Counted from the first letter of the stretch, positions 9,849 to 17,650 are shown. The stretch is DNA of 64,000 nt from Dictyostelium discoideum (GCA_000004695.1 CM000151.3:7264001-7328000), one strand, 5' to 3'. Translations and numbers: made by a program. Notes: a model not told the origin generated them from the letters alone.

Positions 9849-10147
9849 TTTATTTTTTTGATAAAAAAAAAAAATAAAAAAAAAAAAAAAAAAATTATTA
9901 TCAATTTTGTGGATATCAATAGATATACAAAAATAAAAGATTTCCTTGTATTTTATTCGTAAAAATTTATCAACTACATAAGAACAGTAACAACTTCGCC
10001 CTAATCAACTCTAAAACAATAGTTTGCAAAAAATGTCAAAAAAAAAAAATAAAAAAAAAAACAGAAATTTTTAGCGCCAACAAAATTTTTTTTTTTTTTT
10101 TTATTTTTTTTTTTTTAATCACCACCAAAGCCAACACCACCACTACA

Positions 10148-11595
10148 ATGAATGACAACAATCAAAATGATATTGAAAATATTGAATTAGAAAAAAAGAA
10201 TCTGGTTTTTATATTGGAGATAGCAAAATCATATAGTATATCAACAACTAAATTAAAGAAAATGGAAATCATTGAAAAGATAAAAACAGTAGCTAAAAGG
10301 AAAAGAGAATATGAAGAAGAACAAAAGCAAAAAGCAAATGTAATTCATTCAATAAAATTATTAAATTAACAATTGTAGATAATATTGAACCAATTGAAAT
10401 ATTATTTTGGAAAGTGTTTAGAAATAAACTAATTTATAGAAATATATTCTCATTTATGGATCAACGATTTTCATTAAGCTATGACTCAATTTCATCAATA
10501 CCAAATCTTATAATTTCAAATCAATTTAGTATATTAAAAGAAAAAGTTTATAGAAATTGTAGATACTTACAATTTGATTTAAAGAGTGGACAATTGGGAA
10601 TCAATTATTTAAAACTATTATTCGAAAATGTTAAAGATGATTATAAATTCTATAGAAACTTTTTTAAAAATGATAATCATTATTATGAATCCCAAGACAT
10701 TATATCATTTGCATTAATTTTATCAAAGAATTTACAAATTTATAAATTGTATATCAAAGAATTCAATTATGAACCAACAAAATTAGATCTTTTATTTTCG
10801 ATTATATCTGGTTCAAATAAATTCATTAAATATCTATTTGAATTAAATCCACCACCAATTTCAGAATTAGCTCCTAAATGTTTAATTGAAAATATTTTAA
10901 TAATATTTTTAGAGGGTGAACAAGATCAGATCAATAGATCAAGAAAAGAAGCTTTTCCTTCTATTAAAAAAGATGATATTTTCAAAGGACTACTTTGTTA
11001 TTTAAATATCATTAACAATAATAATGATGATGATTTCAGTTGTAGTTTAAATTATAATGAATTAATAAATGATAAAACTGAAAATGATTTATACGAAATT
11101 AATGAAAACTCAACATTAAAAAGATTAATCACAATTTGTATTTTTTCAATAAAAACAAAAACATCATCAGAAGAAGAAAAAGATGCAACAAAAACATCAA
11201 AAACATCAAATGAATCATTTAAATCAGTTCCAACAATTCAAGAAATTGAAAATTTTAAAGAAAAAGTTGGTAAAGAAAGATTAAAATCAATTTTACAAGA
11301 TCCGATCAATTATAATTATAAAAGGGATGACAATAATGAAATTAAAAATTTTATAAAGAAACTTTTATATTTTTATTTTTCAACATTTAAAAAAACATCA
11401 AGTATTTTATATTACTGTTATTTTGATGATAAAGATTATGGTGATGATATAGCCCATACTCCTACCAATTTCATTCTTCCTACACCAAAGATTGAATTTG
11501 CTTTTAGATTTGGAAATTTTAAAATTTTAGAATCATTCAAAACAATTGATTTTTATCAAATTCTGCCAACTATTCATTTTGATAAAAATAATTAA
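10148..11595 (+). CDS. Hypothetical protein family member, copy 1 (SAP-like N-terminus); frameshifted near the N-terminus
   Basis: ORFs 10148..10369 and 10414..11595 are a single reading frame in copy 2 (13816..14760). Copy 1 differs by a 1-nt deletion in an A-run (gtaattc versus gtaaattc near 10345), which shifts the frame. The 40-nt GT..AG interval at that spot is too short for a Dictyostelium intron. Either a sequencing error or a pseudogenising frameshift. Confidence 0.45.
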
Positions 11596-11645
11596 AAGAT
11601 TTAATAAAAAGCCAGTAAAAGGTTGTTGGTTATATTATTTTTATA

Positions 11646-12415
11646 TGCTTGTAATTCATAATGATATTGAATTATTAAAATATTATTATTCAAATGGTAA
11701 TGTTGGTATTGTTACACAATTATTTAGTGTAAAAAATTCTCCAATAGTTGCACCAATATATTATATCAATTCAATTGATATGTTAGAGTATTTATTTAAT
11801 AATCATATAAATTTCTTCAAAGAACCACGTATTGATGGTAATCGTTATAGTACAAATTTTAAAAATTTAGAATTATTAAAACATTTTGAACTATTATTAA
11901 CCCAATCAAACTCAAACTCTACTTCTTCTTCTTCTTCTTCTCCTTCTCCTTCTCAAAACCACTTTTCCGATGGTCATTTTTGTTTTATTAGCCATTCTAT
12001 TAATAATTTTGAATTTCTAAAAAACAAAAACCTTCTTACTTTTGCAAATTACTTTGCTTCAAATTCTAAATACCATGATGCAAATTTAGACTATGAACAA
12101 CTGTTTGTTTTAATCTCTAATGTCGAACCATCATCTCAACTATCGATCAGTTTTGAAACATTAAGAGATTTTGCAATTAACTCTATGAAATATAAAAGAA
12201 AAAACTTATTCTTTACCAGAGCATCAGTAAGAAGTACAAAGTATGCATATCATTATTTAAAATTCATTGATTGGATGTTTATTAACTATAATCAGGAAAA
12301 GGAAAATGCTTGTAACTTCTTTTACAAAGGATTTCACCATTATCATAACCTTTTTGCAACCCATAGATATTGTTCAAACAACAATGACATCAATGACACC
12401 CACAACTTCAGCTTC

Positions 12416-12489
<74 letters not shown>

Positions 12490-12949
12490 TATTGAAGGAA
12501 ATAAACATCTTGTTATTGAAAGATTGGAAAAATCAACAGTTTTAATCAATGATTTAACACCATATTTATATGAAATTAATAATTTTAAATTTTTAAATTG
12601 GTTTTTAACAATCATTAAAATTTATTATTTTTCATCATCAATAGATAATACTGAAAAAAAAACAATTAAAGCAATAGTTGAATCATTTATGAATCTTATT
12701 ATACATAAATCAAGATTACAAGTACTTGAAATTATTCATCAAAATTTTGATTTCATTTTAAAGAAAGAATCAAATGGTGGAATATTGGATATTAATACTT
12801 TAAAATCTTATTTATTTACATCTCTTAAAAATGGTTCAATTAATGTTTCAAAATTTCTTTTTCAATTTATTAATATAACTAAAAAAGAATTTGAAAAAAA
12901 TTCAAATCAACACTCACTTTTATTCTTTTCAAATAAATTTAATAAATAA
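11646..12949 (+). CDS. Hypothetical protein, second gene of duplicated unit (copy 1), poly-Asn insert, about 430 aa
   Basis: ORF MLVIHNDIELLKYYYSNGNVGIVTQLF...; the ORF-track start at 11546 is in a different frame from the preceding ORF and overlaps it. The ATG at 11646 matches the copy-2 start (15397). It contains an (AAT)24 poly-N run at 12415..12485. Confidence 0.5.
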
Positions 12950-12979
12950 TAATATTCTTAGTTCTCTTTGCTTTAATTA

Positions 12980-13010
<31 letters not shown>

Positions 13011-14760: not shown

Positions 14761-15396
14761 TCAAAATTCAACATTAAAATGATTAATCACAATTTGTATA
14801 TTTTTAATAAAAACAAAAACAACATCTACATCACCAGAATAAGATGATGATGATGATGATGATGAAGTAACAACATCAAAAGAATCATTTAAATCAGTTT
14901 CAACAATTGAAGAAATTGAAAATTTTAAAGAAAAAGTTGGTAAAGAAAGATTAAAATCAATTTTAGAAGATCCAATTAATTAATTATAAAAGGGATGATA
15001 ATAATGAAATTAAAAATTTTATAAAGAAACTTTTATATTTTTATTTTTCAACATTTAAAAAAACATCAAGTATTTTTAATTACTGTTATTTTGATGGAAA
15101 AGATTATGGTGATGATATAGCCCCCACTCCTACCAATTTCATTCTTCCTACACCAAAGATTGAATTTGCTTTTAGATTTGGAAATTTTAAAATTTTAGAA
15201 TCATTCAAAACAATTGATTTTTATCAAATTCTGCCAACTATTCATTTTGATACATGTTTTGATGTTGATGATGATAAATGTTATAAAATTTTATTTTCAC
15301 ATTGTTTAGATTAAGAGAAAAAGTTGGAATTCATTAATCAAATAATTAAAAGATTTAATAAAAAGCCTGAAAAAGATTGTTGGTTATATTTCTTTT

Positions 15397-16167
15397 ATGC
15401 TTGTAATTCATAATGATATTGAATTATTAAAATATTATTATTCAAATGGTAATGTTGGTGTTGTTACACAATTATTTAGTTTCAAAAATTGTCCAATATT
15501 TCCACCAATATATTATATCAATTCAATTGATATGTTAGAGTATTTATTTAATAATCATATAAATTACTTTAGAGAAACACGTATTGATGGTAATCTTTAT
15601 AATACCAATTTTAAAAATTTAGAATTATTAAAACATTTTGAACTATTACTTACCCAATCAAAAAAAGAAAATCAAGCCTCCTCTTCTTCTTCCCTAAATC
15701 ACTTTCCCGATGGTCATTTTTGTTTTATAGGCCATTCTATTAATAATTTTGAATTTCTAAAAAACAAAAACCTTCTTACTTTTGCAAATTACTTTGCTTC
15801 AAATTCTCAATACCATAATGCAAAATTAGACTATGTACAATTGTTTGTTTTACTCACTAATGTCGAACCATCATCTCAACTATCGATCAGTTTTGAAACA
15901 TTAAGAAATTTAGCAATTAACTCTATGAAATATAAAAGAATAAACTTATTCCATTTCAGAGCATCGATAAGAGGTACAAAGTACACGAATCATTATTTAA
16001 AATTCATTGATTGGATGTTTATTAACTATAATCAGGAAAAGGAAAATGCTTGTAACTTCTTTTACAAAGGATTTCACCATTATCATAACCTTTTTGCAAC
16101 CCATAGATATTGTTTAAAAGACAATCACATCAATGACACTGACAACTTCAGCTTCAATAATAATAAC

Positions 16168-16211
<44 letters not shown>

Positions 16212-16677
16212 TGATGATACTGATGCAAATAAATATTTTATTATTGAAAGATTGGAAAAATCAATCATTTTAATCAATGATTTAACACCATATTTATATG
16301 AAATTAATAATTTTAAATTTTTAAATTGGTTTTTAACAATGATTAAAACTTATTATTATTCATCATCAATAGATGATACTCAAAAAAAACAATTAAAAAA
16401 TATAGTTAACTCATTTATGAATGCTATTATACATAAATCAAGATTGCAAGTACATGAAATCATTTATCAAAATTTTGATTTCATTTTAAAGAAAGAATCA
16501 AATGGTGGAATATTGGATATTAATACTTTAAAATCTTATTTATTTACATCTCTTGGACATGGTTCAATTAATGTTTCAAAATTTCTTTTTCAATTTATTA
16601 ATATAACTAAAAAAGAATTTGAAAAAAATTCAAATCGAAACTCACTTTTATTCATTTCAAATAAATTTAATAAATAA
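15397..16677 (+). CDS. Hypothetical protein, second gene of duplicated unit (copy 2), 426 aa
   Basis: ORF MLVIHNDIELLKYYYSNGNVGVVTQLFSFKN..., collinear with 11646..12949. Confidence 0.5.
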
Positions 16678-16708
16678 TAATATTCTTATCTTTCTTTAAA
16701 CAACAACA

Positions 16709-16761
<53 letters not shown>

Positions 16762-17650
16762 ATGATAATTCAATTTCATGATTTTTATCTATATCTTTAT
16801 TTGTTTATTTTTTTTATTTTAGCCTATTTCCATTTGATATAATTATCAATATAATAAAAACTTTGTTTTTTTTATGTTTTTTTTTTTCTTAAGAATTTTT
16901 TGCAAGAGTTTTAGTTGCCTTTGTTAATAAATTAATTACAAAAAAAAAATATAAAATATAAATTAAAAAATAAAAAATAAAAAAAATATTTTTAGATTTC
17001 GATTTTCACTGAAAAAAAAAAAACAATTTTTATTGTTGAAATTTCATTGCTTGTTTGTTGTAATTTCTAAAGTAATAATATTTTTGTTTTTCCCAAATTA
17101 TTATTTTTTAAAAGTTGAATATAAAAAAGAAGAAATTAAGAAATTTTAAAATCACTTTTTTTTGCCTTAAAAAAGCAATAAAGTCAAAAAAAATCTTCTT
17201 GAAGCGTAATAGCTTTAATCAAGTGTAGTATCTGTTCTAGAACGCTTAAAATCGTTCTGCTATCTAAGTGGTAGCTTTCGAATTTAATTTTATTTTTTAT
17301 TCGAGGTTTTTAGATGTTATTATAATAATATAGGCTTGCCTTTATTCATTACATCTTAAGTTGTATTCGCTCTGTATCGCACCATTTCAGAGTCAATAAA
17401 AGAGTACTACCTCTCCCTATTTAATTTTAATGAAAAAAAAATTTTAGTTTGCATGGAAAAATTAAAAAGTTTTTATATTATTCACAGAAATAATTATTTT
17501 ACTCACCAACCAATAAGAAAAGAAAAATAATAAAAGAGTTTCTATATCCTCTAATTATTATTATTTTAAAAAAAAAAAAAATAAATAAAAAAAAAATAAA
17601 AAAAAAATCAAATATTTTATTTATAGAATATATTGAAAAGATTATTTAAA

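Follow-up and report, generated by a model that had tools for sequence, protein, structure and literature searches.

A 64,000-nucleotide stretch of chromosome 2 in the Dictyostelium discoideum AX4 genome (GCA_000004695.1 CM000151.3:7264001-7328000), referred to here as the window, has a G+C content of about 20% and contains a head-to-tail duplication, in which each unit comprises one single-exon gene for a protein of about 950 amino acids (aa) and one gene for the U2 small nuclear RNA (snRNA). The repeat search located the pair at 10086-17381, where ten two-copy direct-repeat families recur with a start-to-start spacing of 3660-3984 nucleotides (nt). Pairwise alignment of the units is colinear over about 3.4 kb, from about 10086/13754 to about 13494/17472. 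The components are, in window coordinates:

10086..13494 (+): duplication unit 1, with promoter region, protein (pseudo)gene, spacer and U2 gene (direct-repeat families D2-D11 and pairwise alignment)
10148..12949 (+): copy 1 of the family gene, disabled (AX4_1); 95.1% nt identity to intact orthologs
13209..13423 (+): U2 snRNA gene of unit 1 (Rfam RF00004, 76.2 bits versus a gathering score of 46)
13754..17472 (+): duplication unit 2 (direct repeats and pairwise alignment)
13816..16677 (+): family gene, copy 2, also disabled (AX4_2); nt identity of 94.4-94.5% with its copy 2 counterparts in other strains, of which one is an intact open reading frame (ORF) of 998 aa
17193..17407 (+): U2 snRNA gene of unit 2 (Rfam RF00004, 72.7 bits; 97.7% identical to the unit-1 gene)

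Layout of the units and the protein family

Similarity between the units is unevenly distributed, reaching 92.3% in the coding sequence, 93.5% in a 169-nt block upstream of the U2 gene and 97.7% in the 215-nt U2 gene itself, and is poor in the spacer that follows the stop codon (90 versus 345 nt). The identity of 95-97% given in the initial annotation for the units including their 3' non-coding sequence holds locally, but not for the coding sequence or the spacer, and the conserved "3' non-coding sequence" is in fact a U2 snRNA gene with its promoter region, as identified by Rfam. The same annotation described a tandem duplication of two genes; the head-to-tail arrangement is as described, but the "two genes" are the two halves of one gene, and the U2 gene has to be added to each unit. 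The U2 gene lies about 260-520 nt 3' of the stop codon of the protein gene. Unit 2 has 255 extra nt between this stop codon and the block upstream of U2, which are shared by copy 2 of the isolate ACTFIR. Comparison of the flanks at the duplication breakpoints returned only poly-A/T low-complexity matches, and the junctions reveal no mechanism.

Minimal repair of copy 1, in which one A is restored and 86 nt of copy 2 are inserted, generates a single ORF of about 960 codons. The translation of the repaired copy is 85% identical over 100% of its length to P0001 (ACTFIR_006239), an intact 948-aa protein from the D. discoideum isolate ACTFIR, where it is accompanied by a second tandem copy. The repaired product also aligns end to end with a Dictyostelium family of single-exon, full-length members of 884-1076 aa (E values from 0 to 1e-77, covering 91-100% of the query). 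Among these are the AX4 paralogs DDB_G0271438, DDB_G0271166 and DDB_G0268918, which share 33-48% identity with it over 98-100% of the length and have invariant blocks in common. One such block, E81-F91 in P0001 numbering, is encoded in both AX4 copies. An uninterrupted ORF of about 880-1080 codons is absent from both AX4 copies and present in ACTFIR copy 1 and in both copies of the isolate ACTFIW. These intact single-exon orthologs, of 948, 950 and 998 aa at the same locus, bear out the earlier suggestion that the ancestral state was one long gene.

UniRef names the family of DDB_G0271438, DDB_G0271166 and DDB_G0268918 "Rho termination factor N-terminal domain-containing protein". In Pfam, an N-terminal Rho_N domain (PF07498) scores 36 bits in P0004, above the cut-off, and 15 bits in P0002, below it, and gives no match in P0001 or ACTFIW copy 2; the family may thus carry a weak N-terminal motif of the Rho_N/HeH type. 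The AlphaFold model is all-helical but of low confidence (pLDDT 60.9, pTM 0.45), and a Foldseek comparison of this low-confidence model with the PDB returned no match under E = 0.45. When 1.84 billion representatives were searched with a profile, only 69 relatives came up, many of them short fragments, and all named relatives in the homology search belong to Dictyostelium. The family is fast-evolving and, to judge from the named matches, apparently restricted to dictyostelids. The gene also contains a poly-Asn (AAT) tract (12416-12483 and 16156-16210), whose length varies by up to about 190 nt across the six copies compared below and peaks at 66 Asn in ACTFIW copy 2. The locus of the paralog DDB_G0271438 (L004) holds more family members, a DDE_3 transposase gene and, at L004 675-763, about 9 kb upstream of the paralog, an Rfam mir-7131 match on both strands (99 and 96 bits).

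Lesions in the two copies and their history

The six coding sequences (two copies each from AX4, ACTFIR and ACTFIW) were aligned with the intact ACTFIW copies as frame references. In this alignment, copy 1 of AX4 is interrupted by two deletions, and the ORF left between the resulting breaks is annotated as a gene:

10341..10342 (+): 1-nt deletion (A3 to A2), GTAAATTC to GTAATTC, AX4 copy 1 only; a stop follows at 10367-10369
10456..11595 (+): DDB_G0276891, hypothetical protein, 379 aa (exact-sequence match to XP_642855.1 / EAL68947.1 / Q7KWY6)
11584..11585 (+): junction of an 86-nt deletion that shifts the frame; copy 2 holds the segment

The first deletion confirms the 1-nt frameshift near the N-terminus seen previously in copy 1, since the five other copies all read GTAAATTC at the equivalent of 10341/10342. 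The second, at 11584/5, measures 86 nt against AX4 copy 2 and 122-125 nt against the copy-1 orthologs. Copy 1 has no stop codon in the ancestral frame, and DDB_G0276891 is the middle fragment of this pseudogene. Exact-product look-ups of the ORFs 10148-10369, 11546-12949 and 13816-14760 returned no record; among the ORFs of the two copies, these look-ups placed only the ATG-started 434-aa ORF and the 379-aa ORF on record.

Copy 2 is open across the site of the 1-nt deletion in copy 1, within an ORF that extends from 13816 to 14760, and is disrupted further downstream:

14746..14747 (+): 2-nt deletion, (AT)3 to (AT)2 slippage; a stop follows at 14758-14760
14780..14782 (+): TGA versus AGA in all other copies (six-copy alignment)
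14840..14842 (+): TAA inside a copy-2-specific 12-nt expansion beside a GAT repeat
14980..14981 (+): 2-nt (TA) deletion in AATTATAATTAT
15253..15338 (+): 86 nt of ancestral coding sequence that survive in copy 2 but are gone from copy 1
15312..15314 (+): TAA versus AAA in all other copies (Lys in HCLDKEKK)
15395..15396 (+): 2-nt deletion, TATATG to TATG

Both the intact start of copy 2 and the stops and frameshifts in its later part had been recognized before, and the latter resolve into three 2-nt deletions and three nonsense codons between 14746 and 15396. By contrast, the insertion of roughly 90 bp previously assigned to copy 2 is not an insertion. All four orthologous copies of the two other strains contain the segment, and the difference is therefore a deletion of 86 nt in copy 1. 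This also qualifies the proposal that the copies decayed in a reciprocal and complementary manner. The lesions lie mostly at different places, but complementation fails at this segment, which is missing from copy 1 and carries the TAA at 15312-15314 in copy 2. Neither copy has a sound version of it, and short of a back-mutation an intact gene could not be rebuilt from the two by crossover or conversion.

Each AX4 lesion occurs in a single AX4 copy and in none of the five others. The ACTFIR locus (L001) is syntenic with the window, with the same glutathione S-transferase, EF-hand, PhoPQ-related and TLC-domain neighbours, and its flanking PhoPQ protein is 98.6% identical to that of AX4. Copy 2 of ACTFIR is also dead, through other lesions (+1, -1 and +1 frameshifts, a TAA and a TAG). 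In the ACTFIW locus (L003) both tandem copies are uninterrupted, with 950 and 998 codons. A third locus, L002 (locus tags ACTFIT), belongs to the de novo assembly GCA_054883475.1 and matches window 7635-16964 at 99.5% identity; the stretch ends before the second U2 gene. Across the locus, the DNA of ACTFIR and ACTFIW, which are labelled D. discoideum, diverges from that of AX4 by about 10-11%, and dS in the family gene is about 0.10; proteins encoded nearby share 98-99% identity between these isolates and AX4, and the DNA divergence is unusually deep for one species.

Identity is 94.4-95.1% between orthologous copies and 91.8-93.0% between paralogous ones. As orthologs are more alike than paralogs, the duplication predates the split of the three lineages, and the informative sites agree in the main (67 grouping orthologs versus 21 grouping strains). 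The strain-grouping sites, together with an 18-nt indel at 11424 that also groups by strain, point to gene conversion between the copies, which is clearest at the 5' end:

10148..10600 (+): 5' gene-conversion tract, shared with 13816-14270; the bins of 10148-10547 hold 8 strain-grouping and 0 ortholog-grouping sites

Ortholog-grouping sites begin at 10548 (5 versus 3 in 10548-10747). The 1-nt deletion of copy 1 lies inside the converted tract and yet is found in one copy only, so it is probably younger than the last conversion there.

Selection was assessed through pairwise dN/dS, which is 0.34-0.39 among the orthologs, and through the ratio of derived nonsynonymous to synonymous changes (N:S) on each lineage after polarization. 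The neutral expectation is 4.48, and the counts behind the following ratios are small:

ACTFIW copy 2, intact: 0.92
ACTFIW copy 1, intact: 1.6
ACTFIR copy 1, intact: 1.75
ACTFIR copy 2, dead: 5.3
AX4 copy 2, dead: 2.06 overall, 4.0 (16:4) in the C-terminal part
AX4 copy 1, dead: 1.43

These values suggest that purifying selection acts moderately on the intact alleles, which are presumably functional. Small as these counts are, AX4 copy 2 may have started to drift, and AX4 copy 1 was probably disabled too recently for drift to appear.

The U2 snRNA genes

Both U2 matches are full-length and span positions 1-192 of the Rfam covariance model. The orthologous copies score 76-79 bits, with five genes in the related loci (two in L001, two in L003 and one in L002). 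The branch-point sequence GUAGUA, within AUCAAGUGUAGUAUCUGUUCU, matches the model exactly and is invariant in six copies, and the model alignment includes stem-loops IIa/IIb, III and IV and a U-rich Sm-like site. Two positions depart from expectation: the GAUC of helix Ia, conserved in the model, reads AAUC, and the Sm site reads AUUUUUU against the consensus AUUUUUg, with U replacing the G of the expected A U4-6 G. Across the six copies of the three strains only 13 of the 215 columns of the U2 body vary, while the spacer DNA is heavily rearranged. Conservation continues upstream of the RNA:

13161..13208 (+): 48-nt block that adjoins the U2 gene on its upstream side and shows no variation among the six copies of the three strains; candidate RNA extension at the 5' end or proximal promoter element
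13107..13114 (+): promoter motif DUSE (Dictyostelium upstream sequence element), TCCCAAAA, 102 nt upstream of the Rfam U2 start; perfect in 5 of 6 copies
17091..17098 (+): DUSE-like TCCCAAAT, which departs from the consensus at its last base; 102 nt upstream of the U2 gene in unit 2

None of the 48 columns of the block is variable, compared with 11 of 54 further upstream (Fisher p = 0.0007). Beyond the DUSE, a conserved stretch (ATTGTTGAAATTTCATTATTTGTTTGTTGTAATTTTTAAAG; 13040-13106 and 17023-17090) is common to all six U2 loci. The DUSE, [AT]CCCA[AT]AA, occurs about 63 bp upstream of Dictyostelium non-coding RNA genes (PMC3188802; PMC7919456). If this usual spacing holds, transcription would start near 13170 and place about 40 nt of leader on the RNA. 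An equally good account of the invariant 48 nt is a proximal promoter element. For the putative extension, the predicted 5' hairpin has a free energy of -4 to -5 kcal/mol (z between -1.1 and -1.4), which is weak and not significantly stable.

With their full-length Rfam match, GUAGUA box, stem-loops, U-rich Sm-like site and upstream DUSE, both genes resemble the U2 genes of D. discoideum. Hinas and co-workers are reported to have described, in 2006, divergent and developmentally regulated Dictyostelium U2 variants with an extra 5' stem-loop, a class to which the present loci may belong. A DUSE at 102 nt and an invariant 48-nt block would fit a 5' extension of about 40 nt; the weak 5' hairpin, the AAUC in place of GAUC and the off-consensus DUSE of the second copy set the genes apart. 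Both U2 genes, together with about 170 nt upstream that include the DUSE, are probably under purifying selection and the only parts of the cassette still functional in AX4. A general linkage of U2 genes to the protein family was considered and rejected. No U2 gene was found within 10 kb of the paralogs DDB_G0271438 and DDB_G0268918, and the linkage is therefore specific to the duplicated cassette.

Interpretation, surroundings and known systems

Read as it stands, neither copy encodes the full product, as the initial annotation already stated, and its description of a locus in the course of pseudogenization agrees with frame-disrupting lesions that contrast with intact orthologs at the same locus and are reproduced in a second assembly. 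We consider it likely that a cassette was duplicated in tandem long ago at this locus, that both AX4 protein genes have been knocked out, with the leftover ORFs as fragments of unitary pseudogenes, and that the U2 genes are conserved and probably still functional. In the sequence of events that we propose, the cassette of protein gene and U2 gene would have been duplicated before AX4 separated from ACTFIR and ACTFIW, after which the copies exchanged sequence. In the AX4 lineage, ordinary replication slippage and point mutations would then have disabled both protein genes. Copy 2 may have been hit somewhat earlier, by the three TA/AT dinucleotide deletions and three nonsense codons, and copy 1 very recently, by the 1-nt deletion in the A-run and the 86-nt deletion, which would make the remaining ORFs, DDB_G0276891 included, remnants of two unitary pseudogenes. 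This recent, lineage-specific decay represents ordinary birth-and-death evolution.

Several points weigh against this interpretation. Long ORFs persist (379, 434, 314 and 426 aa), and the AX4 copy 1 lineage lacks relaxed constraint, which fits a very recent inactivation but also fragments that go on functioning. All six lesions of copy 2 are confined to 650 of its 2862 nt (p ~0.003 in a clustering test), perhaps a sign of constraint that persists in the flanking parts. The loss of protein function, like the slippage mechanism and the expression of the U2 genes, is deduced from sequence, and the independence of the ACTFIT assembly from AX4 reads is suggested by its differing intergenic sequence. 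Finally, the DUSE is located at -102 instead of the published distance of about -63, and the motif, a short one, matches 13 times in the window where chance predicts 22.

The first three of these points would also be accounted for by gene fission or partial retention, in which the long genes were split into separately expressed, still useful N- and C-terminal proteins and the fragments, DDB_G0276891 among them, are real genes. Four long ORFs do remain, at least one fragment is annotated as a gene in AX4, four genes are called at the locus in the ACTFIT annotation, the lesions of copy 2 are clustered centrally, and the N:S of AX4 copy 1 resembles that of intact copies. Nevertheless, we regard fission as improbable. 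Changes in the C-terminal part of AX4 copy 2 come close to the neutral ratio (16 N to 4 S, against the 4.48 expected), and the C-terminal ORFs begin at an internal Met 50-80 nt past the upstream stop without a promoter region of their own. DDB_G0276891 is devoid of the N-terminal motif, of the E81-F91 block and of the entire conserved C-terminal third, and short fragments of this family are common in databases. Moreover, the central region is where in-frame indels and simple repeats gather in all copies, and we read the clustering as a probable effect of mutability more than of retained function. A more elaborate version, to which we give slightly less credence still, holds that the fragments are alive: each gene of about 950 aa would be in the process of fission into selection-maintained N-terminal (HeH/Rho_N-like) and C-terminal proteins, and the U2 genes duplicated along with it would represent variants that have a 5' extension, are regulated in development and have their promoters in the 3' flank of the protein genes.

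Restoration of a full-length product from one or both copies, by short introns or programmed frameshifting, is very improbable. The frame shifts of each copy do add up to a multiple of three (1 + 86 = 87 in copy 1; 2 + 2 + 2 = 6 in copy 2), yet this is expected by chance with a probability of 1/3 per copy. A GT...AG pair flanks the copy 1 site at 10340-10378, but the 39-nt candidate is very short for an intron and its removal, worked through by hand, leaves the frame wrong. Only one gene model on record joins ORFs, namely ACTFIT_004522 (P0042, 444 aa), which connects the first two by removing 10327-10439. This "intron" is 113 nt long, has non-canonical GC-AG ends as read off the sequence and would delete the invariant E81-F91 block, and we take the model to be an artefact of ORF forcing. 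In addition, a stop lies 14-28 nt past the first frameshift in each copy, copy 2 contains three nonsense codons, and the sites that the initial annotation thought short introns might remove are coding in intact, single-exon orthologs.

The alternative raised by the same annotation, namely errors of sequencing or assembly in two truly intact AX4 copies, is equally hard to sustain even though near-identical tandem copies can be mis-assembled and one lesion, and only one, sits in a homopolymer (the short A-run at 10341), because every lesion of both copies recurs in L002, which over 9753-16711 differs from the window only by 2 nt in an intergenic poly-A run at 13014 despite many differences nearby at 9360-9752, and because an 86-nt deletion, three stops by substitution or insertion and three dinucleotide deletions are atypical of homopolymer errors.

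Around the duplication, the window contains further genes and repeats:

3872-5288 (+) and 17651-19302 (-): inverted pair of PhoPQ-related (AprA-like, PF10142) genes that brackets the region, about 61% identical in amino acids and arranged in the same way in other isolates
17651-18532 (-): 293-aa ORF, 100% identical to the C-terminal exon of the PhoPQ-related AX4 protein XP_642859.1 / EAL69017.1, chromosome 2
~7645-9560 (-): tandem pair of TLC-domain (TRAM/LAG1/CLN8) genes directly upstream of unit 1, placed through synteny with L001, L002 and L003; a second local tandem duplication
24244-24350: (TTA)36 microsatellite, 96% matching
31274-34363 (-): 1029-aa ORF with SWIRM, Myb and SWIRM-associated domains (SWI3/MOIRA-like), coinciding with the only block of 32% G+C in the window, which has a strong GC skew (0.36)
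40770-41786 (-): cortexillin gene (CH domain and cortexillin coiled coil), most likely ctxB, which is DDB_G0276893 (PMC4263456); a further anchor of the window on AX4 chromosome 2
48021-48136: perfect (AAT)38 microsatellite

On the pseudogene interpretation, AX4 is a natural double null for the gene pair and wild isolates carry one or two intact copies, and this allelic series provides a resource for asking what an uncharacterised, fast-evolving family does. For annotation, DDB_G0276891 is to be regarded as a pseudogene fragment, and in a related assembly automated gene calling has produced four invented genes and one non-canonical intron. A 5'-extended form of U2 is the testable prediction to which the DUSE spacing and the invariant leader of 48 nt lead. 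The general understanding of gene duplication and loss is unchanged.

Compared with the paralog family represented by DDB_G0271438, the duplicated locus differs in two respects: the paralogs are full-length whereas its AX4 copies are disrupted, and a U2 gene adjoins its copies but none of the paralogs examined. With the duplication-degeneration-complementation model the locus shares degenerative mutations at differing positions in two duplicates. However, it is the reading frames that are destroyed here, not separable subfunctions, and the pair leaves the ancestral product uncovered. The closest correspondence is with the birth-and-death evolution of tandem, lineage-specific genes, which likewise involves a tandem pair, conversion between its members, independent disabling mutations in each lineage and an allelic series across isolates with two, one or no intact copies. 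The sole oddity is that an snRNA gene in each unit stays conserved while the protein gene beside it decays.

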